DNA of 64,000 nt, from contig JAEAMQ010000051.1 in NCBI GenBank assembly GCA_016901395.1, positions 40,614 to 104,613 of the forward strand, written 5' to 3'. Of this stretch, positions 1-33,507 are shown piece by piece. The position numbers and the translations under genes are program-made. A model generated the notes under the pieces. It saw nothing but the letters and a program-made list of their open reading frames with translations, was not told the origin of the DNA and did no database searches. Source of the DNA: Prevotella sp. (GTDB lineage: Bacteria; Bacteroidota; Bacteroidia; Bacteroidales; Bacteroidaceae). Each line of letters opens with the position of its first letter. Within the stretch, counting starts at the first letter, position 1.

Positions 1-621
1 ATCTGGCCGGGCCCGTACTGGTATTTCGGGCTGATGCTGCAGTTGTATATCATCTATCGGTTGCTGCTCTACCGCCGACATTGGGCTTGGACGGTCGGGT
101 TGATGGCCGTGTGTGTGGTGCTTCAGCTTTTCATGGACCCCGAAAGCGAACTCATCAACCGTTACAGATACAACTTCATGGGGGGCATGCTGCCCTTCGG
201 ACTGGGACTATTGTTTGCCCGTTACGGTGAGAAAATCATCCTGCTCAACATCAACGGGCTGGGCATGATGATGTCGTTTGTGTTCTGTTCGATTCTCGTT
301 ATCAGCATGAGCAACAACTTCTATGCCTGGACGTTTGTGCCTGCACTCATCTGCTATGCCTCCGTCTACTTCATCAAGCTGTTCCATGTCTTTGCCTCGG
401 TGCCGGCGATGGGCCGCGTCTTCCGATGGCTGGAGTGGATGGGCAGCATCTCCGCGGCCCTGTTTGTCATCCATCCGGTGGTGCGCAAGGTGTTTATCCC
501 TATCTCCCGCAGTGGCGATGTGTACGCGGGACTGCTGCTTTACGCCATCGTCTGCCTCGGAGCGGCATGGCTTCTGCGTGAGTTGATGAAGAAAATCCCC
601 AACCCCAAGATGCAATCATGA
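1..621 (+). CDS. Acyltransferase family 3 (OafA-like O-acyltransferase), C-terminal part; 5' end lies upstream of the window
   Basis: Frame 1 is open from base 1 (IWPGPYWYFGLMLQLYIIYRLL...). The sequence is wholly hydrophobic and multi-TM, typical of an acyltransferase_3 C-terminal half. Its stop overlaps the next start (ATGA at 618-621). Confidence 0.65.
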   Translation: MWPGPYWYFGLMLQLYIIYRLLLYRRHWAWTVGLMAVCVVLQLFMDPESELINRYRYNFMGGMLPFGLGLLFARYGEKIILLNINGLGMMMSFVFCSILVISMSNNFYAWTFVPALICYASVYFIKLFHVFASVPAMGRVFRWLEWMGSISAALFVIHPVVRKVFIPISRSGDVYAGLLLYAIVCLGAAWLLRELMKKIPNPKMQS

Positions 622-1652
622 GAATCCCTGATATCGAATTGGCCAACATCAGCCGCTTCCGCGGTGAGCAGATGGGTGCTGCCATGCTGTTCATTATCCT
701 GTTCCACGTGGGTCTTCCACGCTGGGACATGTTCTTCGGACTACGTCGCATGGGCAACATCGGGGTGGATATCTTCCTGTTTCTGAGTGGTATCGGACTG
801 TGGTTTGCCTGGATGAAGCGGCCCGACTGGAAGCATTTCTTCCGCCGTCGCTATCTCCGCATCTATCCGGCATGGCTCATCATGGCCTGCCTTTACTACA
901 TACCGCGCTTCCACGGCGGCGACCTCATGGCATGGATCGACCTCATCGGCGACATCACGATTAACTGGGACTTCTGGCTTCACGACGAGCTCACGTTCTG
1001 GTACATACCTGCCACGATGATGCTTTACCTCTTTGCACCAGCCTATATGGAACTCATCAAGCGGCATCCCATATACCGTTGGCTGCCCGTGGTGATGGTG
1101 ATGTGGTGCATTCTGGTGCAGTGGGTCACGCCCATCCATCACGCCGTGGGTCATTTGGAGATTTTCTGGAGTCGCGTCCCCATCTTTTTCATTGGCATAA
1201 ACATGGGCGAGATGGTCAGGAGAAAGGACCAACTGGACGGCACCGGGGTCTGGATGATCTTCATTATGTTTGTCATGGCGTTTGCGTCGAGTGTCTTTCT
1301 CGAACAGGTTAGGCACGGAGAGTTCCCGCTTTTCATTGAGCGCATGCTGTATATTCCCCTCACCGTGACCACGATTTTGATTCTCAATCGACTCTTCCGA
1401 CGCACACCGGCATGGTTTAACGGGTGTTTTCGCTTTGTCGGCGCATTGAGTCTGGAGTGCTATCTCATCCATATCCACTTCGTACTCGACTATATTCCCA
1501 AGGCCTGGACCTACTGGCCGACATTCTTTGTTTGCCTTTTCGTCACCCTTCCACTGGCTTGGGTGCTGAGCAAAGTGGCCGGATGGCTGTCTGAGGTCCT
1601 TGCCAAACTCATTCCGGAAAGTACTCCCGACACTTCCGTTACGACCAAATAG
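618..1652 (+). CDS. Acyltransferase family 3 membrane O-acyltransferase
   Basis: ATG at 618. The N-terminus (RFRGEQMGAAMLFIILFHVG...GVDIFLFLSGIGLWFAW) is typical of acyltransferase_3, and the protein is hydrophobic throughout. Confidence 0.8.
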   Translation: MRIPDIELANISRFRGEQMGAAMLFIILFHVGLPRWDMFFGLRRMGNIGVDIFLFLSGIGLWFAWMKRPDWKHFFRRRYLRIYPAWLIMACLYYIPRFHGGDLMAWIDLIGDITINWDFWLHDELTFWYIPATMMLYLFAPAYMELIKRHPIYRWLPVVMVMWCILVQWVTPIHHAVGHLEIFWSRVPIFFIGINMGEMVRRKDQLDGTGVWMIFIMFVMAFASSVFLEQVRHGEFPLFIERMLYIPLTVTTILILNRLFRRTPAWFNGCFRFVGALSLECYLIHIHFVLDYIPKAWTYWPTFFVCLFVTLPLAWVLSKVAGWLSEVLAKLIPESTPDTSVTTK

Positions 1653-1659: not shown

Positions 1660-2589
1660 ATGATGAAGAATTTGCTGAAACTTATACGTCCTTCGCAATG
1701 GATCAAGAACTTCTTTGTCTTCGGTCCGATAGTCTTCGGAGGCGAACTTCTCAATGGTCACGCCATGCTTGCCGGCCTGATTACCTTCATGGCCTTTAGC
1801 TTTGCAGCCTCCAGTGTCTACTGTTTCAACGACATACACGATGTTGCCGACGACCGCCGCCACCCCGAAAAGTGCCGCCGTCCGATAGCCTCGGGCGCTG
1901 TTTCCGTACCCCAGGCCTACGGTTTGATGGCCTTGATGTTTATCCTCGGCATCGGAATCCTTGTGCTGATGGGCCTCTTCGGTCCTGCCAACCCGGCCCA
2001 ACCCATGCCCGATTCCCTCTCCAGTCCGATGCTGAAGACCGCTGGAGTCATCGTCTTCTACTGGGTATTGAACCTCGCCTACTGCGCCAAGCTCAAGCAA
2101 TATGCCATCATCGACGTGTGCATCGTGGCTTTCGGCTTCGTGCTCCGGCTACTGGCGGGAGGCGTTGCAACGGGTATTGTGCTCAGCAAATGGATCGTTT
2201 TGATGACCTTCCTCATCACACTTTTCATGAGTTTCGCCAAGCGTCGCGACGACGTTCTGCGCATGGAAGCCACCGGTGAGGCCCCGCGCAAGAACACGAT
2301 ACACTACAATACCACCTTCATCAACCAGGCCATCACCATCACCGCGGGCGTAACGCTCGTGTGTTACATCATGTACACCGTCAGCCCGGAGGTCATCGCG
2401 CAGTTCCACAACGGCTATCTCTACCTCACAAGCGTATTTGTTCTCGTGGGTTTGCTGCGTTATATCCAGATCGCCGTGGTCGAGAAAAAGAGCGGAAATC
2501 CCACGAAAGTCATCCTCAAAGACCATTTCATCCAGCTCGTGGTGGCTGCCTGGTTTGTGTCGTTCCTACTCATCATCTACGTCATCTGA
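1660..2589 (+). CDS. UbiA-family polyprenyl-phosphate phosphoribosyltransferase (decaprenyl-phosphate phosphoribosyltransferase-like)
   Basis: The track start (TTG 1600) lies inside the upstream gene. The first ATG after the upstream stop is 1660 (MMKNLLKLIRPSQWIKNFFVF). The Asp-rich motif NDIHDVADDRRHPEKCRRPIASG resembles Rv3806c-type DPPR synthases, and there are about 8 TM segments. Confidence 0.75.
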   Translation: MMKNLLKLIRPSQWIKNFFVFGPIVFGGELLNGHAMLAGLITFMAFSFAASSVYCFNDIHDVADDRRHPEKCRRPIASGAVSVPQAYGLMALMFILGIGILVLMGLFGPANPAQPMPDSLSSPMLKTAGVIVFYWVLNLAYCAKLKQYAIIDVCIVAFGFVLRLLAGGVATGIVLSKWIVLMTFLITLFMSFAKRRDDVLRMEATGEAPRKNTIHYNTTFINQAITITAGVTLVCYIMYTVSPEVIAQFHNGYLYLTSVFVLVGLLRYIQIAVVEKKSGNPTKVILKDHFIQLVVAAWFVSFLLIIYVI

Positions 2590-2601
2590 CCCCCACCCGC
2601 C

Positions 2602-3306
2602 ATGTCTGAACGCCAAACGGTCTACATATTCGACTTCGACGGCACGCTGACCACCAAGGACACGCTGCTCGAGTTCATCCGATACGCCAAGGGAACAGGC
2701 CCGTTACTCCTCGGATTTCTGCTCCACGCGCCTCTGTTGGTGCTCATGAAGTTGCGCCTCTACCCCAACTACAAGGCCAAACAACGCCTCTTTTCCTATT
2801 ATTTCAAGGGCATGACGCTCACCGATTTCAATGCCGTCTGCAAGCGGTTTGCCCACGACAACCGCACGAAACTCCTGCGACCGCAAGCCCTCGACACCCT
2901 CCACGATGCCCAATCCCACGGCCATCGCATCCTCATTGTGAGCGCCAGCATCGACAATTGGGTGCGTCCCTTCTTCCCGCAAAGCCTCCCGGCCACACCC
3001 ACTCCACCCGATACTTCCACCGCGCAGTCTCTATCTCCCTCTATGGAGGGTCGGGGAGGGTCATCTTCCGACCTGTCTGAGGGGGATATCACCATCCTCG
3101 GCACGCAAATCGAGACCCACGACGGCCTCCTTACCGGCCGCTTTCTTACGCCCAACTGCTACGGACCCGAGAAGGTTCGGCGCATCGAGGAAGTGCTGAC
3201 CCAGCCTCGCGACACCTATCATATCATCGCTTTCGGCGACAGCCGGGGCGACAAGCAACTCTTAGCATATGCCAATGAAGCCCATTACAAACCCTTCAGA
3301 CACTGA
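2602..3306 (+). CDS. HAD-IB family phosphatase carrying an internal low-complexity insertion
   Basis: HAD motif I is FDFDGTLT, motif II region is VSASIDNWV, and motif IV is FGDSRGDKQLL. A roughly 39-aa Pro/Ser/Thr/Gly-rich insert is encoded at about 2977-3093. Confidence 0.75.
   Translation: MSERQTVYIFDFDGTLTTKDTLLEFIRYAKGTGPLLLGFLLHAPLLVLMKLRLYPNYKAKQRLFSYYFKGMTLTDFNAVCKRFAHDNRTKLLRPQALDTLHDAQSHGHRILIVSASIDNWVRPFFPQSLPATPTPPDTSTAQSLSPSMEGRGGSSSDLSEGDITILGTQIETHDGLLTGRFLTPNCYGPEKVRRIEEVLTQPRDTYHIIAFGDSRGDKQLLAYANEAHYKPFRH
3034..3062. repeat. Degenerate copy of the G/C palindromic REP-like element, in frame inside the HAD CDS
   Basis: TCTCCCTCTATGGAGGGTCGGGGAGGGTC matches the intergenic consensus CCCCTCCC-N4-GGGAGGGG-N3-GGGGAGAGGC. 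Confidence 0.5.
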
Positions 3307-3676
3307 CAAATGGCAGAAACTTGGCGAGGTGGTGCGCTTCGGCATCGTGGGCGCACTGGCCACCGCCATCCAGTATGGCATCTATCTGCTCTGTCTCCGC
3401 TGGACCAACGCGGGCGTGGCCAACACCATCGGCTACGCCATCAGTTTCGTTTTCAACTTCTTCGCCAGCACATTCTTCACCTTTCGCGTGCGTGCCAATG
3501 CCCGCCGCGGTGCCGGATTTGTGCTGAGCCACGTCATCAACTACCTGCTGCAGATGTCGACCCTCGCCTTCTTTATATGGGCGGGCGTGCCCAAACAGTG
3601 GGCTCCCGTACCGATGTTTGCCATCTGTGTACCCGTCAACTTCCTCTTGGTGAGGTATTTTATGAAGCGAAAATAA
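3269..3676 (+). CDS. GtrA family membrane protein
   Basis: A 135-aa protein with 4 TM segments. VRFGIVGALATAIQYGIYLLCL and the FTFRV..AR.G.FV pattern are typical of GtrA. Its start overlaps the HAD stop. Confidence 0.8.
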   Translation: MPMKPITNPSDTDKWQKLGEVVRFGIVGALATAIQYGIYLLCLRWTNAGVANTIGYAISFVFNFFASTFFTFRVRANARRGAGFVLSHVINYLLQMSTLAFFIWAGVPKQWAPVPMFAICVPVNFLLVRYFMKRK

Positions 3677-3723
3677 CCCCCGTCATCATGTCCCCATCCA
3701 TCGATGAAATCCTAAAGAAATCC

Positions 3724-3888
3724 CGAAAATGTATCTTTGAACATACAATTTTATCCCTAAATTGTACATTTGAAAATACACTATTACCCAGAAATTGTAT
3801 CTTTGAAGATACACTTTTGCCTAAAAATTGTACAGTCAAAGATACAATTTAACACTGTTTTTGTATTTTCAAAGATACAATTTCGTAT
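3724..3888. repeat. Tandem array of five 33-bp units, each carrying an 18-bp palindrome TGTA-N10-TACA
   Basis: The palindromes lie at 3730-3747, 3763-3780, 3796-3813, 3829-3846 and 3862-3879, with an exact 33-bp period. Unit 3 (TGTATCTTTGAAGATACA) is a perfect palindrome. Confidence 0.9.
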
Positions 3889-3893
3889 CTTTG
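3886..3893 (+). promoter_or_regulatory. Bacteroidota -7 promoter box TATCTTTG for the AAA ATPase gene
   Basis: Matches TAnnTTTG and lies 25 nt upstream of the ATG at 3918. Confidence 0.55.
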
Positions 3894-3917
3894 CAGCAAA
3901 TCATCAATCTTTAGGAC

Positions 3918-5117
3918 ATGGATATCGACACCCTTTTCAGCATTTCCAACAATCTTGTCAGAAGCGCAAGTCTTGACAAAACACGCTACATCTATCAGAA
4001 AATCAGTTGGCAGACGCCCATGATCTGTGTGAAAGGAGCACGTGGCGTGGGTAAGACCACGCTGTTTTTCCAGCGCATGAAAACTGCTTTCGAGGCCGGC
4101 GAAGCCCTCTATGTCTCCTTGGACAGCATCTGGTTTAGCAACAACAGGCTCATAGACCTCATCGATTATCATTATAATCATGGGGGCAAGGCAGTGTTTC
4201 TCGACGAGGTGCACCGCTATCCCTACGATAACTGGGCGCAGGAACTGAAGAACATCTACGACTCCTATCCCGGCTATCAGATAGCCTTCACAGGCTCGTC
4301 GCTGCTGAAAATAGACATGTCGAAGGCCGACCTCTCACGCCGATGCGTGTTCTATGACATGCAGGGCATGTCGTTCAGGGAGTATCTGAGTTTCTACAAC
4401 ATCGCCCAGTTGCCCTCCTATTCCTTGGAGGATATCCTCGAACGCCACACCGAAATAGAGCAGGAGGTGCTGGCAGCAGTAAAGCCTTTGCAGTATTTTG
4501 ACAACTATCTGCACCACGGCTACTATCCCTTCTACGACAAATATCAGGACACTTACGCCGTGACCCTGCAGCAAATCATCAACACCATCATCGACAGCGA
4601 CCTGCAGTCGGCGCTGAATGTGGAAAACATCACGGTGAACAAGTTCAAGCGACTGCTGTTTATCATCTCGCAAAACGTGCCTTTCACGCCCAACATCTCC
4701 AAGATAGCGCAGGGCATTGAGTCTAACAGGCCACAGACCTACAGCATGCTTTCCACCCTCGACCAGGCCGCGCTCATCAACAATCTCTACTCAGGCAAAG
4801 ATACGATGCAGCAACTCAACAAGCCCGAAAAAATCTATATGGAGAACACCAACCTGCTCTACGCCCTCACCAAGCATCCCACCGAGGGCAATCTGCGGGA
4901 GACATTCTTTGCCAATCAACTCAAAAACGACCACGAAATCACCTTCTCGGGCGAGGGCGACTTTATGATAGACGGCAAATATACGATTGAGGTAGGGGGC
5001 AGACGCAAGTCGTTCCAGCAAATCAAAGACCTGCCCAACAGCTATCTCGCCATCGATGACGTGGAGTCGGCAGTGGGCAACAAGGTGCCCCTCTGGCTCT
5101 TTGGATTCCTCTATTAA
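3918..5117 (+). CDS. AAA+ ATPase (AAA_14 plus DUF4143-type architecture)
   Basis: Walker A is GARGVGKTT and Walker B is VFLDEVH. The length and C-terminal half are typical of the DUF4143 ATPases common in Bacteroidota. Confidence 0.75.
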   Translation: MDIDTLFSISNNLVRSASLDKTRYIYQKISWQTPMICVKGARGVGKTTLFFQRMKTAFEAGEALYVSLDSIWFSNNRLIDLIDYHYNHGGKAVFLDEVHRYPYDNWAQELKNIYDSYPGYQIAFTGSSLLKIDMSKADLSRRCVFYDMQGMSFREYLSFYNIAQLPSYSLEDILERHTEIEQEVLAAVKPLQYFDNYLHHGYYPFYDKYQDTYAVTLQQIINTIIDSDLQSALNVENITVNKFKRLLFIISQNVPFTPNISKIAQGIESNRPQTYSMLSTLDQAALINNLYSGKDTMQQLNKPEKIYMENTNLLYALTKHPTEGNLRETFFANQLKNDHEITFSGEGDFMIDGKYTIEVGGRRKSFQQIKDLPNSYLAIDDVESAVGNKVPLWLFGFLY

Positions 5118-5128
5118 CAGCTTATCGT

Positions 5129-6568
5129 ATGAAAAATCCATTCAGCATATTCACCCTTAGGCGCGAGGAGCGGTGGCCGGCAGTCGCGGCCATGATATAC
5201 ATTGTGGCGCTGAATGCCCTCGTCATCAACCGATACGTGGGGCAATTCACTGCGATTTCCGACAACTTCCACCGCTTGTTCGTGCGCACCTTCCACGTCT
5301 CGGGCTTCGACCCACTGACCTATTCAGTGGTGTCGGCATGGGGCACGGAGTATAACATCTACCGCCACCCGCTGCTGGCCTTTATGATGTGGCCCCTCAA
5401 TCAGCTCAATCAGGGCATCATGATGGTCACGGGGTACAACGGGGTGCAGTTTGTCGTGGCCGCGCTGCTGGTGTTCTGCGCGTTCTATGCCTTCGTGTTT
5501 CTCTGCCGGATATTCAGGGAAATCATTGGCGTGAGGGCCATTGACGCGTGGCTCCTCGGCGCGCTGACCTACAGTTTTGCCTTTGTCATGCTCTCCTCCT
5601 GCGTGCCCGACCACTTCGTGCTCTCCATGTTCATGCTCGTGCTGACGCTCTATGTCGCCGGTCGCAAAATGCAGACGGGCCGACAGCTCACGCTCTGGCA
5701 ATCGACAATCCTATTCTTTCTCACCGCCGGCATATCGCTCAACAACGGCATCAAGGTGCTCATCGCCAATCTCTTTGTCAATGGCCGCCGCTTCTGGCGA
5801 CCCCGCCACCTGTTGCTCGCCGTGGTGGTGCCCTGCGCCCTGATATGGGGCGTGGCGCGCGCGGGGTGGTACTACTACGAGCGGCCCAACTACATGGCGC
5901 GACAACAGAAACGGGCGAAGGTGGAGCAGACGCGCCGTGAGAAGATTGAGAAAGCTTTCCGCGACACCACCCACCTGCGCGACACCGCTGCCATCAGGGC
6001 CGGCATCAACCGTGTCGTCGCCCAGAAAGCGGCCGAACGGAAGGCGCGCGACAGCAAAAAGGCATGGAAAGCGCACATCGGCAAACCTATGGGGCACGGC
6101 GAATTTTCACAGTGGACCGACATCTCCACGCCACGATGGGCCTCGATGGTGGAGAATTTCATGGGCGAATCGATACAACTCCATCAGGACCATCTGCTCG
6201 AAGACAACCTCACGCGCCGCCCCGTCATCGTGACCTATCGCTGCAGTCTGAACTACATCGTAGAGGCCTTGCTCGCGCTGCTCGTCCTCGCGGGCGTGTG
6301 GTGCGGCCGTCGCAGCCGGTTGCTGTGGCTGGCGATGAGCTTCCTCGGCTTCGACCTCGTGATCCATGTGGTGCTCGGCTTCGGACTCAACGAGGTCTAT
6401 ATCATGTCGGCCCACTGGCTTTTCACGCTGACCATCGCCCTCGGTTTCCTCTTCAAACGATGGGAAACGACGCGCCTGCGCATTCCCTTGCGACTCACGG
6501 TGCTAACGCTCACGCTCTTTCTCATGGCGTGGAACTGGACGCTTTTAGTGGGGTATCTCGCAGGTTAA
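5129..6568 (+). CDS. Uncharacterised polytopic membrane protein, paralog 1 (candidate lipid-linked-sugar-dependent glycosyltransferase)
   Basis: Shares these motifs with 6824-8077 and 10174-11523: MKNPFSIF..REERW, FHVSGFDP, RHPLL, VPDHF, ENFMGESIQLH and NEVYIM. It also carries a Lys/Arg/Glu/Ala-rich insert of about 75 aa. Confidence 0.8.
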   Translation: MKNPFSIFTLRREERWPAVAAMIYIVALNALVINRYVGQFTAISDNFHRLFVRTFHVSGFDPLTYSVVSAWGTEYNIYRHPLLAFMMWPLNQLNQGIMMVTGYNGVQFVVAALLVFCAFYAFVFLCRIFREIIGVRAIDAWLLGALTYSFAFVMLSSCVPDHFVLSMFMLVLTLYVAGRKMQTGRQLTLWQSTILFFLTAGISLNNGIKVLIANLFVNGRRFWRPRHLLLAVVVPCALIWGVARAGWYYYERPNYMARQQKRAKVEQTRREKIEKAFRDTTHLRDTAAIRAGINRVVAQKAAERKARDSKKAWKAHIGKPMGHGEFSQWTDISTPRWASMVENFMGESIQLHQDHLLEDNLTRRPVIVTYRCSLNYIVEALLALLVLAGVWCGRRSRLLWLAMSFLGFDLVIHVVLGFGLNEVYIMSAHWLFTLTIALGFLFKRWETTRLRIPLRLTVLTLTLFLMAWNWTLLVGYLAG

Positions 6569-6584
6569 AGCCTTTGAAAAATAT

Positions 6585-6720
6585 TAACACGCAGAAAAGG
6601 TCTCGGAATAAGTACCTAATCGCATCACGATTAGATAGTAATCGTCTCACGATTCGGTACTAATCGTGACGCGATTCGATACTAATCGTCAGACGAAAAG
6701 ATAGGCATTGTTTTTCCATC
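6585..6720 (-). repeat. Dispersed TAATCG-rich intergenic element, copy A (short, reverse orientation)
   Basis: On the reverse strand it reads ACGATTAGTATCGAATCG..CACGATTAGTACCGAATCGTGAGACGATTA..CTAATCGTGATGCGATTAGG. This is homologous to the copies at about 17.1, 44.3 and 59.4 kb. Confidence 0.7.
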
Positions 6721-6823
6721 CCACCAAAACCCTTCGCCAACCCCAATAAACACAGGGCAAGACGAGGGTTTCGGCGAATGGTCATCAGGGCGGAAACCAC
6801 CCCAGCAAGCAGTCCAATAATTG

Positions 6824-8077
6824 ATGAAAAATATATTTACAATACACAGACGTGAGCGTTGGCCGATGCTCCTGATGGTCGTGGCACTGGGCGTGTTCCA
6901 TGTGCTCCTCATAGCCAAGTTCTTCCCCCTGTTTGCCGATTACAGCGAACAGCACTGGGATGTGTTCATGCGCAACTTCCACATGTCGGGGTTCGACCCC
7001 ATCTCCTATGCCGTGCTGACCGACTGGCACCAGGGTTTCGATATCCTGCGCCACCCGCTGCTTGCGCTGATGATGTATCCGCTCTATCTGATTAACAGCC
7101 TCCTGTGGACGTTGACAGGCTGCAACTGCTGCCAAATTATCATGGGTGCGATGCTCCTCGCCGCCGGCAGTTATGCGTGGCTCATGCTCTATCGCATCCT
7201 GCACGAGCTGGTGGGTCTCAGCCGCGCCTATGCCCTACTGCTCTCGTCGCTGGGGTTTGGCTTCGCCTATGTGCTCATCCCCACCTTTGTGCCCGACCAT
7301 TTCGGACTCTCGCTCCTGCTGCTGCTCACCTTATTTTATATAGCGGGCGGCAAACTGCAACGGCGCGAACGGTTCACCTGGCGCGAGGCATCGCTGTGGT
7401 TTCTGCTCACGGCGGGAGTGACGCTGAGCAATGGCGTGGCGGTGATGATTATGGTGGCGGTGGTCAACGGGCGCGAGGTGCTACGCTGGAAATTCCTCGT
7501 TTTGTCGTTCGTCGTGCCCTCGGCGGTGTTGCTCGCCACCGCCCTCGCCATCAGTCGGGCCACGGATATATCGCAGGTGAGCGTCGCCGAGCCGGTCAGC
7601 AACCAGTTTAGATGGGTGAAAAACAATGCGTCCCGCTTTGATGTCATGGTGGAGAACTTCTTCGGCGAGTCGCTGCAGTTGCACCGTCGGCATGTGCTGG
7701 GCGACGTGTTGACGCGTCGGCCGGTCATCGTGCGCTATTCGTGGAAGGGGCAATATGTGGTCGAGGGTCTGCTGGTGGGACTGTTTCTGTGGGGCCTGTG
7801 GATGGGTCGCCGCGAGCGGTTGGCGTGGATGGCGATGGGCATCGTGGCACTGAATATCGGACTCCACCTCGTGTTGGGGTTTGCCTTGGACGAGGTTTAT
7901 ATCATGGCGGCGCACTGGGCGTTCTGCCTCCCCATCCTCATGGCCTACGTGTTGCGTAGTCCCCTCCGTCCCGTCCGTCTCTCCGTCGCCCTGCTTCTCC
8001 TTGCCATCGTAGGCTATCTATGGTCCTACCACGGCGTGTTGTTATTCCGATACCTCACCTGGCCGGTGAAAATGTAA
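6824..8077 (+). CDS. Uncharacterised polytopic membrane protein, paralog 2
   Basis: The track start at 6821 is TTG. ATG at 6824 gives MKNIFTIHRRERW, which aligns with paralog 1. Shared motifs are FHMSGFDP, RHPLL, VPDHF, ENFFGESLQLH and DEVYIM. Confidence 0.8.
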   Translation: MKNIFTIHRRERWPMLLMVVALGVFHVLLIAKFFPLFADYSEQHWDVFMRNFHMSGFDPISYAVLTDWHQGFDILRHPLLALMMYPLYLINSLLWTLTGCNCCQIIMGAMLLAAGSYAWLMLYRILHELVGLSRAYALLLSSLGFGFAYVLIPTFVPDHFGLSLLLLLTLFYIAGGKLQRRERFTWREASLWFLLTAGVTLSNGVAVMIMVAVVNGREVLRWKFLVLSFVVPSAVLLATALAISRATDISQVSVAEPVSNQFRWVKNNASRFDVMVENFFGESLQLHRRHVLGDVLTRRPVIVRYSWKGQYVVEGLLVGLFLWGLWMGRRERLAWMAMGIVALNIGLHLVLGFALDEVYIMAAHWAFCLPILMAYVLRSPLRPVRLSVALLLLAIVGYLWSYHGVLLFRYLTWPVKM

Positions 8078-8080
8078 AAC

Positions 8081-8127
8081 ATATAACGCAGGAACGGGAC
8101 GACCATCGTCCCGTTCCTGCGTTATAT
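8081..8127 (+). terminator. Perfect 20-bp-stem hairpin directly after paralog 2
   Basis: ATATAACGCAGGAACGGGAC-gaccatc-GTCCCGTTCCTGCGTTATAT begins 4 nt after the stop at 8077. There is no clear U-tract. Confidence 0.55.
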
Positions 8128-8242
8128 TGGCTTCATCATTGGGCAAGGATTGCCTTCCGGCGGTGCGGACATGCACGGGGCATGTCCCTACAATGCTATG
8201 GTCTTTTCATCGCATTTACAGCTCAATAAATCCATAAAATCC

Positions 8243-8572
8243 TTCAAAATAATCTGTCTTTTTGTCTTTCTGTCTCCAAGAAAAACCTGTCCTTTATGGA
8301 GTTCTGTCTAAAAATCCCACCGCGCAGCCATTGTTATTTTGTTACTATGTCTTCAAAAACAATCTGTCTTTTTGTCTTTCTGTCTCCCAGAAAAACCTGT
8401 CCTTTATGGAGTTCTGTCTAAAAATCCCACCGCGCAGCCAATGTTATTTTGTTACCATGTCTTCAAAAACAATCTGTCTTTTTGTCTTTCTGTCTCCAAG
8501 AAAAACCTGTCCTTTATGGAGTTCTGTCTAAAAATTCCACCGCGCAGCCATAGTTATTCTGTTACTATGTCT
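8243..8572. repeat. Tandem repeat of three 110-bp units
   Basis: The units are 8243-8352, 8353-8462 and 8463-8572 and are nearly identical. The array sits between convergent gene ends (8077 and 8589). Confidence 0.9.
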
Positions 8573-8588
8573 TTCTCCTCCCGCACTG

Positions 8589-9614
8589 TTACACATGTCT
8601 ATCCCGCCCGATCCACTTGTTCACGCGGCGACGAAGGGCCTTGGTGATGGCGCCGAAGTTTCCATACCGCAGGTTCAGCGCCAACTCTTCCATCGACCGC
8701 GCGACCTTGATGCCCGGGTGTCCCCACGCATTCGTCTTATAGAGGAAATCCTTATACGCCATGTTTTCAATGACATACTTCGGGTGTTTCAGCGGAAACG
8801 CCATCTCGTAACGCTTCATCTGGAAGATGCGGCGGTAGGCACGGGGCGTAGTTTTCATGCTGCCGGAGAAGTGAGTGGAGTCTTCCGACAGGCCGAGATT
8901 GTTGATTTGGTTCTGTCGGGGCATAATGGCGAGGCCCGAATTGAGCAACTGCACAGACCAGAACACGCTTTCAAAATACGGTTTTCCATTGGCACGGTGG
9001 TCGTGAAGCATCTTCATGAAGTCAGAACGATAGCGTCTTTCCTTCACCACCCGGTCCAGCAGACGCATGTTGTAGTCATCATCCATGAAACCATAGCTGC
9101 CGTCCCACTGGTCCACCACACGCTTCCACGAAGCCCATCCCCATATACTGAATGCGGAAGTAAAGAAGTAATCATCGGGCACATCGGTGCTTTGCTCCTC
9201 CACATTAAAGCCCGCAACCATCGTTATCCGGTTGTCGTGCTCATATCGGTCGAGCATCTCCTTGCAGAAAGGGAAGAACGACTGCGCGGGCACCACGTCG
9301 TCTTCGAGCACCATACACTTGTCGGCCATCGAGAAAGCCCACTTCTGCGAGAGGTAGCCGGAGGGGTCGCAGCCCTGGTTTTGCTCACAATAGTGGCGAT
9401 GAACCTCACATTCCCAGTCGATGTTTTCGTCTGAGACGATCTGTCGGCAGGCCTCGATGCCAGGCATGTCGCGCTCGCCCCGCGGTCCGTCCTGATAGAG
9501 AAACAGTCGCGACGGGCGTGCCTTCCTCACCTCGTTGAACACCTGTTCAAAGTGGTCTGGGCGGTTGAAGAACAGCATCAACACCGCAATATCTGTCTTG
9601 TAGGGTTGTTTCAT
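8589..9614 (-). CDS. GT-A fold glycosyltransferase (GNT-I/GT13-like)
   Basis: IAVLMLFFNRPDHFEQVFNEV...LFLYQDGPR and the acidic motif VLEDDVV resemble GNT-I-like transferases. ATG at 9614. Confidence 0.55.
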   Translation of the reverse strand: MKQPYKTDIAVLMLFFNRPDHFEQVFNEVRKARPSRLFLYQDGPRGERDMPGIEACRQIVSDENIDWECEVHRHYCEQNQGCDPSGYLSQKWAFSMADKCMVLEDDVVPAQSFFPFCKEMLDRYEHDNRITMVAGFNVEEQSTDVPDDYFFTSAFSIWGWASWKRVVDQWDGSYGFMDDDYNMRLLDRVVKERRYRSDFMKMLHDHRANGKPYFESVFWSVQLLNSGLAIMPRQNQINNLGLSEDSTHFSGSMKTTPRAYRRIFQMKRYEMAFPLKHPKYVIENMAYKDFLYKTNAWGHPGIKVARSMEELALNLRYGNFGAITKALRRRVNKWIGRDRHV

Positions 9615-9652
9615 GAGTGTAATTTAACTTAAATACCTTACCAAAAATGACA

Positions 9653-9940
9653 TTACCTTAAATAAAAATGATGGAAAGCCTGCTCCGTATTCACTACATC
9701 CATCATGCGAAGACGGCCGTCTGCAGACTGCATCTTCAACCGGTTACAATTTGTAACCGTTTGATTTCCCTCCTTCTTCAGTCTGTTTTTCAACACCTTC
9801 CAATAGTTTCTGGGGTCCTTACTCTCCGTCAGCGCACCACAGATATCCACGACAGAGAAGAGCCATTCTTCTTTCTCGTCATCCCATGCAGTGCGAATCC
9901 GGCTACTTCCAAACAGTTTCAGGGCTTCTTGTTTTGTCAT
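9653..9940 (-). CDS. Bro-N/antirepressor-like DNA-binding domain protein, probably a truncated remnant
   Basis: A 95-aa protein. IRTAWDDEKEEWLFSVVDICGALTES..PRNYWKVLKNRLKKEGNQ resembles the N-terminal domains of longer phage-derived Bro/RhuM-type proteins (from memory). The surrounding sequence is AT-rich. Confidence 0.4.
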   Translation of the reverse strand: MTKQEALKLFGSSRIRTAWDDEKEEWLFSVVDICGALTESKDPRNYWKVLKNRLKKEGNQTVTNCNRLKMQSADGRLRMMDVVNTEQAFHHFYLR

Positions 9941-9963
9941 AAGGTATATACATTATTTATTTG

Positions 9964-9971
9964 CAAAGATA
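9964..9971 (-). promoter_or_regulatory. -7 box TATCTTTG (minus strand) upstream of the Bro-N-like gene
   Basis: The reverse complement of CAAAGATA matches TAnnTTTG, about 24 nt upstream of the ATG at 9940. Confidence 0.5.
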
Positions 9972-10126
9972 AAAGAATTGTGCGAGAATACATGCTGAAA
10001 AGCCATGTTTTTGTGGCTTAAAGTCAGTACATGACTACCGAATGAAGGGAATTGACAAAACAAGGAACTCTTGGGACACTGCAAACAAATCAAGGCATTA
10101 GGCTTTTCGCATTGGCAAATAATTCG

Positions 10127-10134
10127 TACTTTTG
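10127..10134 (+). promoter_or_regulatory. -7 box TACTTTTG for paralog 3
   Basis: Matches TAnnTTTG, 40 nt upstream of the ATG at 10174. Confidence 0.55.
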
Positions 10135-10173
10135 CAACATGAACAATAGATTTGACGCAGAATTGATGAAGTA

Positions 10174-11523
10174 ATGAACAATCCGTTGAAGATATTCTGT
10201 ATTAGAAAAGAGGAGAAATGGCTCGCCATCGTGACCCTTCTGGTGTTTGTCGCACTGAATGCCGTGATGATCGGCAGTCATTGGGCAGCCTATACCGAAG
10301 GTCAGGCGGGTGGATTCTGGACGGTTTTCACCCACCGTTTCAGCATGTCGGGGTACGATTGCTGGTCGTGGATCACCGTATCGGGCATGCGCATCCACTT
10401 TGAGACCATCCGCCATCCGCTTTATCTCACCTTCCTCTACCCCATGTACTTGCTCAATCACTGGCTTATGGGGTGGACAGATGTAAACTTTGCCGTGTTC
10501 ATGATAGCCGCGGTGCTGATATTCTCGGCCATTTACTCGGCGATATTCATGTATCGCACCTTCCGCGAAATACTTCTTTTGGAACACCGTCACGCCCTGT
10601 TGCTGGTGGCATTGCTGTTTTCCTTTGGTCACGTGATGATACCACCGATGGTTCCCGACCATTTTGCCATCTCCATGATGCTGCTCACCATGACGCTCTA
10701 TATTGCCGGACGACGCATGCAGAAAGGCCGAACGCTGAAGGCATGGCAGTCGATGGTGCTGCTGTTTTTTACCTCGGGCATTGCCGCTTCCAATGGCGCG
10801 AAGACGCTGTTGAGTGCGCTTTTTGTCAACGGGAAGCGTTTTTTCCGACCCGGTTACCTGTTTGTCGGAGCCGTATTGCCCCTTGTTGCGCTACTCGCCA
10901 TACAACGATACCAGTACGAAAGCTTTGAGGTGCCACAGCAAAAAGCCATCGAAAAGATTGAGAAAGCTAACGCCAAGAAGCGCGACAAGAAGAAAATCGC
11001 AGCCACAGAGAACCACAACCAATGGGTGAAGAAGCACGACATGAAGCGTGCCGCCCACGAAGGACTGCTGCAGTTGATGGACTTTAAGACTCCCCGCACA
11101 CCCGCCATCATCGAGGATTTCTTTGGCGAGTCGATTCTGTTGCACCGCGATCACGCCCTCGGCGACGTGTATGTAGACCGCCCTTCGATGATTTATTACC
11201 ACGCATGGTGGTACTATGCCATCGAAGCAATATTCGTTTTGCTCTTTGTCTACGGTGTTTGGCTGGGCCGAAAGCATCATTTGATGCAGATGATGCTGTG
11301 CTGGTTTGCCTTCGATGTGACCCTTAACCTCATCCTTGGATTTGCCATTAACGAGGTGTATATTATGGCTTCGGGATGGATTTTCATCATTCCCATTGCC
11401 ATAGGATATATCATCAAGGCCCTGCCCAAGGCTTATCTTTTCCCTCTGGAAGCCCTGTTGCTGTTCCTCGCACTATTCCTTTGGGTCAACAACGCAACGC
11501 TTATCGTCAACCATTTAATTTAA
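10174..11523 (+). CDS. Uncharacterised polytopic membrane protein, paralog 3
   Basis: Motifs MNNPLKIFCIRKEEKW, FSMSGYD, RHPLY, VPDHF, EDFFGESILLH and NEVYIM match paralogs 1 and 2. It carries a Lys-rich insert of about 55 aa. Confidence 0.8.
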   Translation: MNNPLKIFCIRKEEKWLAIVTLLVFVALNAVMIGSHWAAYTEGQAGGFWTVFTHRFSMSGYDCWSWITVSGMRIHFETIRHPLYLTFLYPMYLLNHWLMGWTDVNFAVFMIAAVLIFSAIYSAIFMYRTFREILLLEHRHALLLVALLFSFGHVMIPPMVPDHFAISMMLLTMTLYIAGRRMQKGRTLKAWQSMVLLFFTSGIAASNGAKTLLSALFVNGKRFFRPGYLFVGAVLPLVALLAIQRYQYESFEVPQQKAIEKIEKANAKKRDKKKIAATENHNQWVKKHDMKRAAHEGLLQLMDFKTPRTPAIIEDFFGESILLHRDHALGDVYVDRPSMIYYHAWWYYAIEAIFVLLFVYGVWLGRKHHLMQMMLCWFAFDVTLNLILGFAINEVYIMASGWIFIIPIAIGYIIKALPKAYLFPLEALLLFLALFLWVNNATLIVNHLI

Positions 11524-11529
11524 ACAGTG

Positions 11530-12360
11530 ATGAACTTCAGCGACAATCTCAGGACATTCAGCCAGTCAAACCTGCGCGAATGCCAGCTCAAGCAACTGCA
11601 AATCCTACAGGAAATCGACCGGATTTGCCAGAAACACCACATCGAATACTGGCTCGACGGGGGCACGTTACTGGGTGCTGTGCGTCACGGTGGGTTCATT
11701 CCGTGGGACGACGACATCGACATCGCCATGCGATTGGAGGACGAACGCCGCTTCGAAGCTATCGCACCGCAGGAACTTCCGGACTGGCTCTTTCTGCAAA
11801 CCACACACTCTGACCCCAATTCCAAGGAGCCAATCACGAAGATTAGGGACATTACCTCGCTCTATATCGAACGTGGCGACAACTTCCAAACGGACTATGT
11901 GAAGGGTATTTTCGTGGATATCTTCCCGTTTGTAGACTATCCTGACATCTCCAGAAAGTGGATTAAGCGACTCACCAGAGGCATTTCCAAGAGCCATTCG
12001 ATACTCCATCATACCCACTATTACAGCCTGCGGGCCTTCGCAGAGTTCTTCTATTTCGGGGCGAAATACGCCTTATGCAGTGCGGTCTGGGCCGTAGTCT
12101 CACGACTGGGAAAGAAAACCCGCGTCTCCGATGTGCCCTATCTCAATGGCCGGGGAATCTCTTTCGACAAGCAAGCCGTATGGCCTTTGGGCACTATTCG
12201 GTTCGAAGGCTGCGAATTTCCGGCCCCGTGCAATCCCGATTCCTATCTCCACGACCTCTATGGAGACTATATGACGCTGCCGCCAGAGGACAAAAGGGAG
12301 TTCCATTCGGTAGTCATCTTGCCTCAATTATTTACCAAAAACACGGAGAAAGAGCAATAA
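11530..12360 (+). CDS. licD: LicD family phosphotransferase (phosphocholine/ribitol-phosphate transferase family)
   Basis: LQEIDRICQKHHIEYWLDGGTLLGAVRHGGFIPWDDDIDIAM is a classic LicD N-terminal signature. The start may be GTG 11527 or ATG 11530. Confidence 0.85.
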   Translation: MNFSDNLRTFSQSNLRECQLKQLQILQEIDRICQKHHIEYWLDGGTLLGAVRHGGFIPWDDDIDIAMRLEDERRFEAIAPQELPDWLFLQTTHSDPNSKEPITKIRDITSLYIERGDNFQTDYVKGIFVDIFPFVDYPDISRKWIKRLTRGISKSHSILHHTHYYSLRAFAEFFYFGAKYALCSAVWAVVSRLGKKTRVSDVPYLNGRGISFDKQAVWPLGTIRFEGCEFPAPCNPDSYLHDLYGDYMTLPPEDKREFHSVVILPQLFTKNTEKEQ

Positions 12361-12591: not shown

Positions 12592-13623
12592 TTACAGCCT
12601 TACCGACTGCAGGATATGGCTTAATCCTTCTTCCAAACCAAACAAAGGCTTCCAGCCCAAGGCCTCCAACTTACGCGTGCTGAATACCGCACGGGTGATG
12701 GGTGTGGTGTTGCCGTGCGACGAATCGGCCGGAATATCGAACACAACCCGTCGTGAAGCCAACCTCGCCACGGTCTCGGCGAGGGTGCGAATCGATACGT
12801 TTGACTCCTCATTGGCGATGTTGTAGGCCTCGCCCGACGCCCCTTTCAACAACACGAAAAGCAGTGCAGACGCACAGTCTACGGCGTAAGTCCACGACCG
12901 AAACGCCTCTCCCGTGCTCTTCAACACAATGTCTTCGCCCCGCAACACGTTCCTGATGAACTGCGCATAGACCCTGTTATCGGACTCGGTGAACTGCGGA
13001 CCATACACATGAGAGGGCCTCACGATGCACACATCGAAACCGTATTGCGCACCGTAACAGATGCAGAGCGTCTCCGCCGCACGCTTGGCCGACGGATAAC
13101 AAGCCCTCACTGTCGTGGGGTTGACATAGCCACTGTAGTCCTCCGAGAACTCGCGGCCATCGCCTTCGCCATACACTTCGCCCGAGGAAACATAGACAAA
13201 CCGCTCCAATCCGTGCTTCACGCCATAGCGCAAGAGCCTATCCACACCCATGATATTGGCCTGCATCACCCCCACCGGGTCCGTTTGGTAAAGGCGGGGA
13301 TTGGCCCCTCCCGCCGCGTTGATGATGAAATGGAAGGTCGTTTCCGACGGAATCGGATCGGTAACATCAAACGGAAGGAAGTGGAAACGGCTGTCGTCAC
13401 GCTCCTTTTGAAACACTTTCTCGGCACGATCACGGTTTCTACCCGCCGCGCAGACCTGACAATCGAGGTCGCTCCGACGCAGCAACATCCTCACCACACA
13501 GCTCCCGATGAGTCCGGTGGCACCCGTCACGAGCACGTTTTTCCCCCTCAGGCTGTCCCAAGGCAGTTGGAAAGCCAGCGCGCGGGCCATGTCTTCCTCG
13601 TAGGGGGTCATCATTTCAGCCAT
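12592..13623 (-). CDS. NAD(P)-dependent SDR epimerase/dehydratase/reductase (candidate ribulose-5-P reductase of a CDP-ribitol pathway)
   Basis: Rossmann motif GKNVLVTGATGLIGSCVV. The track's 111-aa N-terminal extension is Arg/His-rich junk that overlaps the upstream gene. ATG at 13623 (or 13614, which makes an ATGA overlap with the upstream stop) fits. Confidence 0.75.
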   Translation of the reverse strand: MAEMMTPYEEDMARALAFQLPWDSLRGKNVLVTGATGLIGSCVVRMLLRRSDLDCQVCAAGRNRDRAEKVFQKERDDSRFHFLPFDVTDPIPSETTFHFIINAAGGANPRLYQTDPVGVMQANIMGVDRLLRYGVKHGLERFVYVSSGEVYGEGDGREFSEDYSGYVNPTTVRACYPSAKRAAETLCICYGAQYGFDVCIVRPSHVYGPQFTESDNRVYAQFIRNVLRGEDIVLKSTGEAFRSWTYAVDCASALLFVLLKGASGEAYNIANEESNVSIRTLAETVARLASRRVVFDIPADSSHGNTTPITRAVFSTRKLEALGWKPLFGLEEGLSHILQSVRL

Positions 13624-14330
13624 TGCTCCTGTTCGGTGTGAATGAGTGCTTTGAACAGATCGATGTCCTCGGTCTGCGTCAGTTTCAGTCCGTTTCGCTC
13701 CGAACCCATCACCAGATGCTGGTCTTCCACGCCCAGTTCGGCCATCAACGTACACGATGCCACGGTGCCGTCGATGCCCCGCCGGTCGGCTTCGGCATGC
13801 GTGTCGAGCAGCGTTTTCAGCCTGTAAGTATGCGGCGTCTGCGTCCTGATGAGCTTTTCGCGGGGAATGGCGATATTCCTTACCTGGTCGTCCACCTTCT
13901 GCATGATGGCCTCTTTGCACACCAAACCGGTGACGGCATAACCGAATTTCTGGCATTTCTCGATGTTCTCGGAGATAATCCGCTCGCTCACCAAGGGCCT
14001 TACTCCATCGTGTACGAGGATGATGTCATCGTCCTTGCACCCCGACGCGCGCAGTCCCACGAGTCCGTTGCGTATGGAATGCTGGTTGCTGTCGCCCCCC
14101 TCGAAAATCCATTTCAGTTTCGTGATGTTGTATTGATTGGCATACGCCTGCAACACCACGTCCCATCCTTTCAGACAAACCACACAAATGCCGTCTATCT
14201 GCGGATGCGACTGGAAAGCCTGCATGGTATAGATGATCACCGGCTTGTTGTCGATCGTCATAAATTGCTTGGGGATATCCTGCCCCATTCGGTTGCCGAT
14301 GCCCCCGGCTGTCAGTAATGCGATGTTCAT
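13611..14330 (-). CDS. IspD/TarI family cytidylyltransferase (D-ribitol-5-phosphate cytidylyltransferase-like)
   Basis: MNIALLTAGGIGNRMG..IPKQF is the IspD/TarI signature. The size is 239 aa and the gene is adjacent to an SDR. Confidence 0.8.
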   Translation of the reverse strand: MNIALLTAGGIGNRMGQDIPKQFMTIDNKPVIIYTMQAFQSHPQIDGICVVCLKGWDVVLQAYANQYNITKLKWIFEGGDSNQHSIRNGLVGLRASGCKDDDIILVHDGVRPLVSERIISENIEKCQKFGYAVTGLVCKEAIMQKVDDQVRNIAIPREKLIRTQTPHTYRLKTLLDTHAEADRRGIDGTVASCTLMAELGVEDQHLVMGSERNGLKLTQTEDIDLFKALIHTEQEQWLK

Positions 14331-15288: not shown

Positions 15289-15346
15289 ACGCTTCAAAAT
15301 CTATGGTTTGATGCCGGCCGCAGTCGCTCTGTGGCCCGCCGGCAAC

Positions 15347-33505: not shown

Positions 33506-33507
33506 GC

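Follow-up and report, generated by a model that had tools for sequence, protein, structure and literature searches.

A predicted three-component pentofuranosylation locus in Prevotella, with DUF6080 proteins as candidate periplasmic glycosyltransferases

Introduction

How might a Prevotella cell attach a pentose to a glycan outside its cytoplasmic membrane, and which proteins would carry out the transfer? The question is raised by a locus at the left end of a 64,000-nucleotide stretch of DNA, called the window here, from a Prevotella sp. metagenome-assembled genome (MAG; GenBank assembly GCA_016901395.1, contig JAEAMQ010000051.1, positions 40,614 to 104,613 of the forward strand). Genes for a UbiA-type prenyltransferase homolog, a HAD phosphatase and a GtrA protein are followed there by three paralogous membrane proteins. 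An initial annotation, made from the letters alone, had proposed that these six genes are a Bacteroidota counterpart of the mycobacterial system that uses decaprenylphosphoryl ribose and arabinose (DPR/DPA) as donors. Our analysis led to a related answer with a different precedent: at a probability of about 0.7, the locus is a Prevotellaceae version of an extracytoplasmic three-component pentofuranosylation system. On computational evidence, the three paralogs, all members of Pfam family DUF6080, would probably be its periplasmic glycosyltransferases, dependent on a polyprenyl-phosphate-linked pentofuranose.

Biochemical proof that such systems exist came from Kelly et al. (PNAS 2024), who demonstrated the addition of alpha-ribofuranose (alpha-Ribf) or alpha-xylofuranose (alpha-Xylf) to O-antigen in the periplasm (PMC11127046). 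Their Citrobacter youngae O1/O2 system consists of ORF15, in which a phosphatase (PRP) is joined to a polyprenyl-phosphate 5-phosphoribosyltransferase (PPPRS), the MATE flippase ORF14, and ORF12, a glycosyltransferase of the GT-C type that founded CAZy family GT136 (PMC11127046). The authors described three-component systems as widespread and predicted further examples, with SMR-type flippases possible, GT-C partners that are typically ‘hypothetical’ and one separate PRP; their survey covered Proteobacteria, a Bacillus and a phage, and held no Bacteroidota and no DUF6080 (PMC11127046). Which pentose is attached depends on auxiliary epimerases that act on the lipid-linked ribose, and the transferase of the GT-C type can be promiscuous (PMC11127046). 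The concept is thus already published. What is new here is the transferase family, the split synthase and phosphatase accompanied by GtrA, the Prevotellaceae setting and the O-glycosylation-like Wzx locus.

Results

The donor cassette

The locus runs from base 1 to about 16.8 kb of the window, with housekeeping genes beyond. All six open reading frames (ORFs) named in the initial annotation were recovered with the same coordinates and strand. Pfam and NCBIfam matches bore out the three consecutive same-strand UbiA, HAD-IB and GtrA genes, and the three proteins with multiple transmembrane helices all matched DUF6080 (PF19558), at about 40% identity to one another. Paralog c (449 aa) is 100% identical to an NCBI MAG protein. 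The genes of the proposed system are:

1660..2589, + strand: predicted UbiA-superfamily polyprenyl-phosphate 5-phosphoribosyltransferase of the PPPRS or decaprenylphosphoryl-5-phosphoribose (DPPR) synthase type (Pfam UbiA, E=1.9e-19; NF008978)
2602..3306, + strand: HAD-IB phosphatase, predicted polyprenyl-P-ribose-5-phosphate phosphatase in the PRP role (PF12710, E=3e-34; TIGR01490; ‘FDFDGT’)
3269..3676, + strand: GtrA-family small membrane protein, predicted flippase for lipid-linked pentose (GtrA_DPMS_TM, PF04138, E=2e-19)
5129..6568, + strand: DUF6080 paralog a, 479 aa, predicted GT-C-fold pentofuranosyltransferase (PF19558, E=4e-189)
6824..8077, + strand: DUF6080 paralog b, 417 aa, without most of the charged helical insert (PF19558, E=1.5e-133)
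10174..11523, + strand: DUF6080 paralog c, 449 aa, predicted GT-C-fold pentofuranosyltransferase (PF19558, E=8e-170)

The UbiA homolog scored 224.3 bits against the NCBI curated equivalog NF008978 (decaprenyl-phosphate phosphoribosyltransferase; cut-off 207), 52 bits against the generic prenyltransferase model, and 19-31 bits against the UbiA, CyoE, BchG and ChlG models for quinone, haem and chlorophyll enzymes. A search of the PDB gave the same ranking, with the Rv3806c structure 8j8j first (E=6e-41) and chlorophyll synthase (1.7e-4) and UbiA (6e-3) far behind. The protein carries FNDIHDVADDRRH; the residues N57, D58, D61 and D65 of its catalytic NDxxDxxxD motif align residue for residue with the motif of Rv3806c and are invariant in 10 homologs. 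The residues of this N-D-x-x-D-x-x-x-D motif, which lies in cytoplasmic loop II, are essential in both ORF15 and Rv3806c (PMC11127046). On this strong homology the protein groups with DPPR synthases rather than quinone or haem prenyltransferases, as had been suspected, and is predicted to transfer phosphoribose from phosphoribosyl pyrophosphate (PRPP) to polyprenyl phosphate. Among 50,697 phage records the same UbiA type was seen only in one 6.6-kb unverified fecal fragment.

Two samples underlie most of the counts given below: 48 DUF6080 loci from reference genomes and, for the reverse comparison, 57 metagenomic UbiA loci whose downstream flank is 4 kb or longer. The HAD gene lies downstream of UbiA in 54 of the 57. 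Its product shares PF12710 with the PRP domain that is fused to UbiA in a Rhizobium plasmid protein of ORF15-type architecture, is clearly homologous to the stand-alone HAD-IB of a Lactococcus cassette (E=5e-9), and is 43% identical to a HAD domain found fused to DUF6080. Homologs are shorter (199-209 aa against 234 in the window), and a Pro/Ser/Thr-rich insert of about 35 residues (about aa 127-160) is missing from the fused HAD domain of protein P0138. The GtrA gene starts 38 nt inside the HAD gene, and its product is 61% identical to a GtrA domain fused to DUF6080. GtrA, present in 43 of the 57 UbiA loci, would be the dedicated small flippase (of the MATE or SMR/GtrA type) that belongs to three-component systems.

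Linkage of DUF6080 to the donor cassette

The idea that the membrane family travels with the UbiA-HAD-GtrA triad held in both directions. Of the 48 reference loci, 26 have a full triad no more than 10 kb from DUF6080, as do 23 of the 37 that have at least 5 kb of upstream flank. The order of the triad is constant, it is nearly always upstream of DUF6080, and in nine loci the gap between GtrA and the nearest DUF6080 gene is under 100 bp. Conversely, 40 of the 57 UbiA loci have at least one DUF6080 gene downstream. The arrangement is not due to chance.

Gene fusions tie the components together further. A HAD::DUF6080 protein of 678 aa forms a cluster of 27 members, and GtrA::DUF6080 proteins occur at 614 aa (67 members) and 601 aa (16 members). 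As clusters of 16-67 members were seen on many contigs from four sources (NCBI, JGI, ENA and Logan), we rejected the possibility that the fusions are gene-calling artefacts. The fusion genes occupy the exact cassette position. One layout reads sulfatase, two Acyl_transf_3 (AcT3) genes, UbiA, HAD, [GtrA::DUF6080] and, further on, GT2, Wzx and LicD, while a minimal one reads sulfatase, two AcT3 genes, UbiA and [HAD::DUF6080]. In the GtrA::DUF6080 genome (loci L137/L138) a group II intron reverse transcriptase lies directly past the fusion gene.

The modules can also be separated. Bacteroidales bacterium KA00344 has its donor cassette midway along one scaffold, beside metG, and a DUF6080 pair midway along another, beside two GT2 genes and Wzx. 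Here the modules co-occur without adjacency, and the transferases stay with the presumptive acceptor locus.

The DUF6080 family and its paralogs

DUF6080 was not mentioned in the literature that we searched. It is a small family, numbering 737 representatives (at 50% identity) in a set of 1.84 billion proteins, and was seen only in Prevotellaceae-type genomes: in all 48 reference loci and in the sole match among 72,556 plasmid records. Phage carriage was rejected, as DUF6080 was absent from the 50,697 phage records. The c-type paralog is found in 48-50 of 51 loci, the a-type in 30-32 and the b-type in 3-5, and copies within one locus are 29-43% identical. By sequence comparison, the paralogs appear as three old, separately conserved orthogroups in which the duplicates were retained. 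Because such old duplicates have been kept, the three probably make different linkages or act on different acceptors or acceptor positions.

Positive-inside analysis over 42 DUF6080 sequences supports a topology with the N-terminus inside: in each of the loops predicted to be cytoplasmic, the net charge is positive (+1.1 to +2.6) and acidic residues are almost absent. This orientation fits the fusion of the N-terminus of DUF6080 to a cytoplasmic HAD phosphatase. The invariant polar residues all fall in predicted periplasmic loops: the first has D62, R80 and H81, the second H163 (next to D162, which is nearly invariant), the large fourth loop E319, D331 and R336, and the fifth E394 and Y396. 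D62, in the motif S-G-[YF]-D in the loop after the first transmembrane helix, is invariant in all 42 sequences. The catalytic residue of GT-C enzymes is usually an aspartate in the first extracytoplasmic loop, and by this analogy Asp62 is likely to be the catalytic residue of DUF6080.

The predicted fold of the DUF6080 proteins

We made AlphaFold2 models of paralogs a and c, which are 40% identical, compared them with the PDB by Foldseek, and inspected the top 50 matches. The model of paralog c (pLDDT 90.6, pTM 0.91) gave GT-C-fold proteins as all of its top 23 matches, and that of paralog a (pLDDT 90.9, pTM 0.89) as all of its top 27. These included STT3, AglB, PglB, Pmt1/2/4, ALG9, ArnT, PimE, AftA and PIG-U, with EmbA/B, ALG3 and AftD lower down. 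For nearly all top GT-C matches the Foldseek probability was at least 0.9, at TM-scores of 0.28-0.48. Transporters (MFS, ABC) had probabilities of at most 0.1 and TM-scores of about 0.1, and no Wzy, WaaL or SEDS protein was among the top 50. The paralogs had been suggested as donor-dependent transferases provided that they did not resemble Wzy polymerases, ligases or permeases, and the fold, the linkage and the fusions with HAD and GtrA all favour that role. The scores are moderate, and the assignment of DUF6080 to the GT-C fold rests on the agreement in ranking across two independent models and not on one strong match. Both models are all-helical (449-479 aa) and have no beta-rich C-terminal domain.

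Kinship to known GT-C families at the level of sequence was sought and rejected. A Pfam scan of 42 members at E-values up to 10 gave DUF6080 as the sole match, phmmer and profile searches of the PDB found nothing, and hhalign gave a probability of 0.3% against GT39. One local match, at 22% probability, was obtained by hhalign with the 533-aa partner protein of the Lactococcus cassette. Any kinship of DUF6080 to GT-C is at the level of the fold only.

The sugar

Genes of the DprE1/DprE2 type, which accompany arabinofuranose synthesis in mycobacteria, were found by Pfam neither in the locus nor in the other window ORFs scanned nor in the cassettes of six related loci (L049, L051, L137-L140). In Chondrinema (Bacteroidota) and Rhizobium plasmids an FAD oxidoreductase and a short-chain dehydrogenase/reductase (SDR), both DprE1/E2-like, lie directly beside the synthase. 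Because neither DprE1/E2 nor another epimerase accompanies the cassette, the donor is most likely polyprenyl-P-ribofuranose (undecaprenyl-P-Ribf) rather than its arabinofuranose (Araf) or xylofuranose counterpart. The preference for ribose that the initial annotation drew from the missing DprE1-like oxidase thus stands.

The pathway could run as proposed and still end in a different pentose: an epimerase encoded at another site, or the SDR of the locus (12592-13578), could turn the ribose into arabinofuranose or xylofuranose. Auxiliary epimerases do set the pentose in the characterised systems, with GT-C enzymes that can tolerate the change, and a related gut cassette (L052) has an SDR epimerase. 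We consider this unlikely. The closest match of the locus SDR is CDP-6-D-glucitol synthase (E=6e-40), and its gene regularly goes together with one for an IspD-like cytidylyltransferase, often with LicD as well; the SDR was therefore rejected as a pentose epimerase. With the cassette-linked epimerase of L052 it shares only 21% identity, and the window and the cassettes examined hold no DprE1/E2 pair. Polyprenyl-P-ribofuranose is the donor assumed below.

The surrounding locus

The other genes of the locus are:

1..621, + strand: 3' portion of a gene for an Acyl_transf_3 membrane O-acyltransferase, truncated at the left window edge (open frame from base 1; PF01757 at positions 132-324)
618..1652, + strand: Acyl_transf_3 membrane O-acyltransferase, directly upstream of the UbiA gene and conserved (PF01757, E=7e-27)
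3918..5117, + strand: AAA_14/DUF4143 ATPase (Pfam), a genome-specific insertion, probably outside the system
8589..9614, - strand: 341-aa protein, likely a GT-A/GT2-like cytoplasmic glycosyltransferase (no Pfam or NCBIfam match)
11527..12360, + strand: LicD-family phosphotransferase, starting 3 nt past paralog c (PF04991, E=9e-39)
12592..13578, - strand: SDR similar to CDP-6-D-glucitol synthase (best PDB matches 8v4g/8v4h, E=6e-40)
13611..14330, - strand: IspD-family sugar/alditol-phosphate cytidylyltransferase (PF01128, E=3e-34)
14338..15297, - strand: GT2 glycosyltransferase (PF00535, E=5e-29)
15347..16780, - strand: Wzx flippase, probably of Bacteroidota O-glycosylation type (NCBIfam NF058658, E=1.3e-196)

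The context speaks for a Wzx locus of the Bacteroidota O-glycosylation type and against a generic polysaccharide locus. Wzx matched NF058658 (‘O-glycosylation flippase’) over its full length at 654 bits, below the cut-off of 720, with the next family at 185 bits. A Wzx homolog neighbours DUF6080 in 32 of the 48 reference loci. Neither Wzy nor Wzz is among the annotated genes of the locus, and with its small size and its probable type of Wzx a capsule or O-antigen locus is disfavoured. The arrangement of Bacteroides, with metG beside wzx, was not found in the locus, where a glutamine synthetase gene comes after wzx.

The best relatives of the SDR, 8v4g/8v4h, are structures of the Campylobacter HS5.17 enzyme, a CDP-6-D-glucitol synthase, and gene pairs of PF01128 with PF01370 are predicted to make CDP-hexitols (PMC10918830). 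The IspD-like protein scored 143 bits against NF001183 (ribitol-5-P cytidylyltransferase), below the cut-off of 166 bits. In nearly every related locus that has either gene, the SDR and IspD-like genes were detected together, usually adjacent and often with LicD. The LicD, SDR and IspD-like genes (11527-14330), beside Wzx, are therefore predicted from their families to form a module for CDP-hexitol synthesis and hexitol-phosphate transfer. In the genome with the GtrA::DUF6080 fusion (L137/L138), the Wzx locus holds a phosphoenolpyruvate (PEP) mutase gene, which suggests phosphonate decoration in place of the hexitol-phosphate module; the regions concerned there, with the reverse transcriptase gene, are 12371-13567 and 18336-20615.

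Every triad locus whose upstream flank is long enough has an Acyl_transf_3 O-acyltransferase gene ahead of UbiA, as do nearly all of 80 metagenomic loci. A second such gene lies ahead of the first in the related loci examined (L049, L051, L137-L140). In all six of these Pfam-annotated neighbourhoods a sulfatase-family (LtaS/EptA-like) membrane protein gene accompanies the two Acyl_transf_3 genes upstream of UbiA; by synteny it would fall beyond the left edge of the window. The pattern suggests a larger periplasmic glycan-tailoring block that adds a phospho-substituent, O-acyl groups and a pentofuranose.

Between GtrA and paralog a lies a gene that had been overlooked, for an AAA_14/DUF4143 ATPase. 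It is missing from all 48 related loci, including one (L001) whose locus proteins are 83-96% identical, and as it is present in this genome only, we rejected it as a component of the system. A 33-bp tandem repeat of 3.8 copies (3725-3850) precedes it. Further intergenic tandem repeats are found at 6616-6703 (22 bp, 4 copies), 8242-8573 (110 bp, 3 copies, 95% identity) and 12337-12540 (44 bp, 4.6 copies), and hairpins with 20-bp stems lie shortly past gene ends at 8082-8126 and 12550-12592. These elements could be regulatory, terminators or repeat elements.

The 341-aa protein is kept at 61-83% identity in 16 related loci, and another locus (L013) has in the same position a 25%-identical homolog with a weak match to Glycos_transf_2; a GT-A/GT2-like cytoplasmic glycosyltransferase is the likely function. 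Between its gene and paralog c is a 95-aa ORF (9653-9940, - strand) with a weak Bro-N domain match, possibly a mobile-element remnant.

Elsewhere in the window, a housekeeping block at 30484-37367 (dxr, murA-like, DUF4290, tsaB, yicC, gmk, nadD) is followed by gltB. The dxr-nadD block directly adjoins the glycan module in Segatella albensis (L051) and, in part, also in L139/L140; here it is 14-20 kb from the locus, which implies a rearrangement. Two type III glutamine synthetase genes are present (17611-19884, - strand; 44730-46925, + strand). The region 46993-56221 holds unrelated genes for plant-polysaccharide degradation: a PL11 rhamnogalacturonan lyase, a GH51-type alpha-L-arabinofuranosidase and a GH2 beta-galactosidase.

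Discussion

The proposed pathway has four steps. At the cytoplasmic face the UbiA-type enzyme would transfer 5-phosphoribose from PRPP to undecaprenyl phosphate, for which the homology is strong. The stand-alone HAD-IB protein would then remove the 5-phosphate to give undecaprenyl-P-ribofuranose, as its adjacency, family and fusions suggest. GtrA, by analogy with other GtrA proteins and with Rv3789, would move the lipid-linked ribose to the periplasmic leaflet. Finally, on the periplasmic side, DUF6080 would pass ribofuranose from its lipid carrier on to a glycan, an activity to which the computed fold, topology, linkage and fusions point. The two upstream O-acyltransferases, with the sulfatase/EptA-like phosphotransferase in related genomes, may provide further periplasmic tailoring of the same glycan.

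The closest precedent is the C. youngae three-component system, closer than the mycobacterial pathway. Both have a UbiA-type PPPRS using PRPP, a HAD-family protein, a small flippase and a GT-C protein at the periplasm, in Prevotella by prediction and with the HAD protein as a candidate phosphatase, and in both the absence or presence of an epimerase would set the sugar. They differ in that the Prevotella synthase and phosphatase are separate genes, with a HAD-IB protein of the TIGR01490 type; in that the flippase is of the GtrA type, as in mycobacteria and Gtr systems, rather than MATE; in the Bacteroidota host; and in the acceptor, which is probably not O-antigen. The transferases differ too. 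ORF12, the GT136 enzyme, has 11 transmembrane helices and a C-terminal beta-rich carbohydrate-binding module, whereas DUF6080 proteins have 420-480 aa, occur as 2-3 paralogs and have no such C-terminal module. By this difference in architecture, DUF6080 is unlikely to belong to GT136.

The likeness to the mycobacterial DPR/DPA arabinan pathway, as had been proposed for this locus, is nonetheless real in its first enzyme, which is homologous to Rv3806c, and extends to a GtrA-like protein (Rv3789), to multiple GT-C paralogs (Emb/Aft) and to the use of a polyprenyl-monophosphate pentofuranose outside the membrane. In contrast to mycobacteria, the Prevotella cassette has no DprE1/DprE2 and hence, we predict, makes no arabinose; it has a HAD-IB phosphatase in place of the PAP2-type Rv3807c; its transferases are not Emb/Aft; the lipid is presumably undecaprenyl rather than decaprenyl phosphate; and the product would be a decoration rather than an essential cell-wall polymer. 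The Gtr systems for O-antigen glucosylation in Shigella and Salmonella share the GtrA flippase, a lipid-monophosphate donor and a variable GT-C enzyme that acts after flipping. Their donor is made by the GT2 enzyme GtrB with UDP-glucose, while here a UbiA-type PRPP-dependent enzyme and a phosphatase would supply a pentofuranose.

Related cassettes occur outside the Prevotellaceae. A human fecal ‘phage’ fragment (L052; MT837543.1, 898-5419) encodes a UbiA-type synthase (51% identical), HAD-IB, a 118-aa SMR/EamA transporter, an SDR epimerase directly past this flippase, and a 565-aa DUF6044 protein in the position of the transferase. The Lactococcus plasmid pLLF27D (L136) has, in an exopolysaccharide cluster, a 533-aa hypothetical protein, DPPR synthase, HAD-IB and GtrA. 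The Rhizobium plasmid pR132503 (L135) has HAD::UbiA, GtrA, DprE1-like and DprE2-like proteins and two hypotheticals of about 520-540 aa. On a plasmid of Chondrinema litorale (L134) are a DPPR synthase, an FAD oxidoreductase, an SDR, an acyltransferase, a GT39 protein and a TMEM260-like protein, with no HAD annotated; judged by its gene families, this is an arabinofuranose-type layout in Bacteroidota. The last three have the same donor cassette, split or fused, with polytopic hypothetical or GT39 partners, none of which is DUF6080, and the arabinose-type epimerase pair is in two of them (Rhizobium and Chondrinema) and not in Lactococcus. Because the same cassette is paired elsewhere with DUF6044, GT39, TMEM260-like and 520-540 aa proteins, a modular design fits, in which one donor cassette serves interchangeable GT-C transferases.

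Several observations weigh against ribofuranosylation by DUF6080. The fold match is moderate, with a best Foldseek E-value of 1.5e-3, TM-scores of 0.40-0.48 and a large global root mean square deviation, and by sequence DUF6080 could not be linked to any of the established GT-C families (PMT_2/GT39, ArnT, STT3, GT87 and others). About a third of the DUF6080 loci flanked in full are without a triad in the nearest 10 kb, the check for one elsewhere in the genome having covered a single genome, and GtrA is absent from about a quarter of cassettes. Between the HAD protein of the window and the fused PRP domain in a protein of ORF15-type architecture, similarity is only marginal (E=0.014). Finally, no ribofuranose-bearing Prevotella glycan was found in the literature searched, and the O-glycan of P. 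intermedia contains no pentose.

Some of these points would be expected if the association were indirect, with the cassette feeding another transferase and DUF6080 using a different donor, such as an undecaprenyl-P-hexose, or acting as a non-catalytic flippase or scaffold. Besides the DUF6080 loci that have no nearby cassette, 17 of the 57 cassettes have no nearby DUF6080; where GtrA is dispensable another protein must flip the donor; and PIG-U, a non-catalytic protein of GT-C fold, is among the fold matches. Yet no alternative GT-C was recognised in the annotated Prevotellaceae neighbourhoods, in which a few ORFs are without a Pfam assignment. The minimal cassette consists of UbiA and HAD::DUF6080, and the invariant acidic and basic residues cluster in periplasmic loops in a manner resembling an active site. 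No GtrB-type polyprenyl-P-hexose synthase was recognised beside DUF6080, although several neighbouring GT2 genes, among them one that comes right after the DUF6080 pair in about a dozen loci, were not examined for that activity. We regard an indirect association as quite unlikely and continue with DUF6080 as the pentofuranosyltransferase.

What would receive the sugar is less clear than what would transfer it. Judging from the context, the most likely acceptor is what the adjoining Wzx/GT2/LicD/CDP-hexitol locus makes, a product that is plausibly the outer portion of the general protein O-glycan. The locus resembles the Bacteroidota general protein O-glycosylation (LFG) locus in its probable type of Wzx, in having no annotated Wzy or Wzz and a few GT2 genes, and in its predicted hexitol-phosphate module. 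It differs in that the Wzx score is under the cut-off and metG is not adjacent, and the link is one of context. The O-glycan of P. intermedia, the sole characterised Prevotella O-glycan, has a HexNAc-P-hexitol branch whose genes are unassigned, and for this branch the LicD, SDR and IspD-like genes are candidates. Neither a pentose nor a GT-C step in the periplasm has been described for O-glycans of any Bacteroidota, and a 2025 review describes assembly as wholly cytoplasmic before flipping, with the oligosaccharyltransferase (OTase) and the ligase unknown. That the O-glycan is the acceptor is for us a tentative suggestion, and the specific proposal that the periplasmic substrate of DUF6080 enzymes is the general protein O-glycan of Prevotellaceae, ribofuranosylated either on the flipped outer glycan linked to undecaprenyl diphosphate (Und-PP) or on the glycoproteins, is equally doubtful at present.

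The missing OTase and ligase invite the thought that DUF6080 moves not single pentoses but the whole Und-PP-linked outer glycan in one block, onto protein or the core glycan, as its best fold matches are the oligosaccharyltransferases STT3, AglB and PglB, a Wzx of probable O-glycosylation type is so often its neighbour, and the KA00344 pair lies with Wzx and two GT2 genes apart from the cassette; but this is very improbable, as O-glycosylation is phylum-wide while DUF6080 was seen, in the samples searched, only in Prevotellaceae-type genomes, each locus conserves two or three paralogs, the HAD and GtrA fusions and an operon shared closely with PPPRS speak for a monophosphate pentose donor, and DUF6080 has no large C-terminal periplasmic peptide-binding domain of the kind seen in oligosaccharyltransferases.

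The ribofuranosylation proposal gives DUF6080 a specific candidate function and, if it is confirmed, the family would probably found a new CAZy GT-C family. It would extend the pentofuranosylation paradigm of 2024 to the Bacteroidota, and there to Prevotella, Segatella and Hallella, dominant and medically relevant genera of the gut, mouth and rumen whose envelope glycans are almost uncharacterised. The predicted ribofuranose epitope would be acid-labile and easily missed by standard glycoproteomics. If the acceptor is the general O-glycan, the model of all-cytoplasmic assembly would need revision, and this would be the first extracytoplasmic lipid-monophosphate-dependent tailoring step in Bacteroidota O-glycosylation. 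The three orthogroups may then add distinct Ribf residues and so generate species- or strain-level glycoform diversity on hundreds of envelope proteins.

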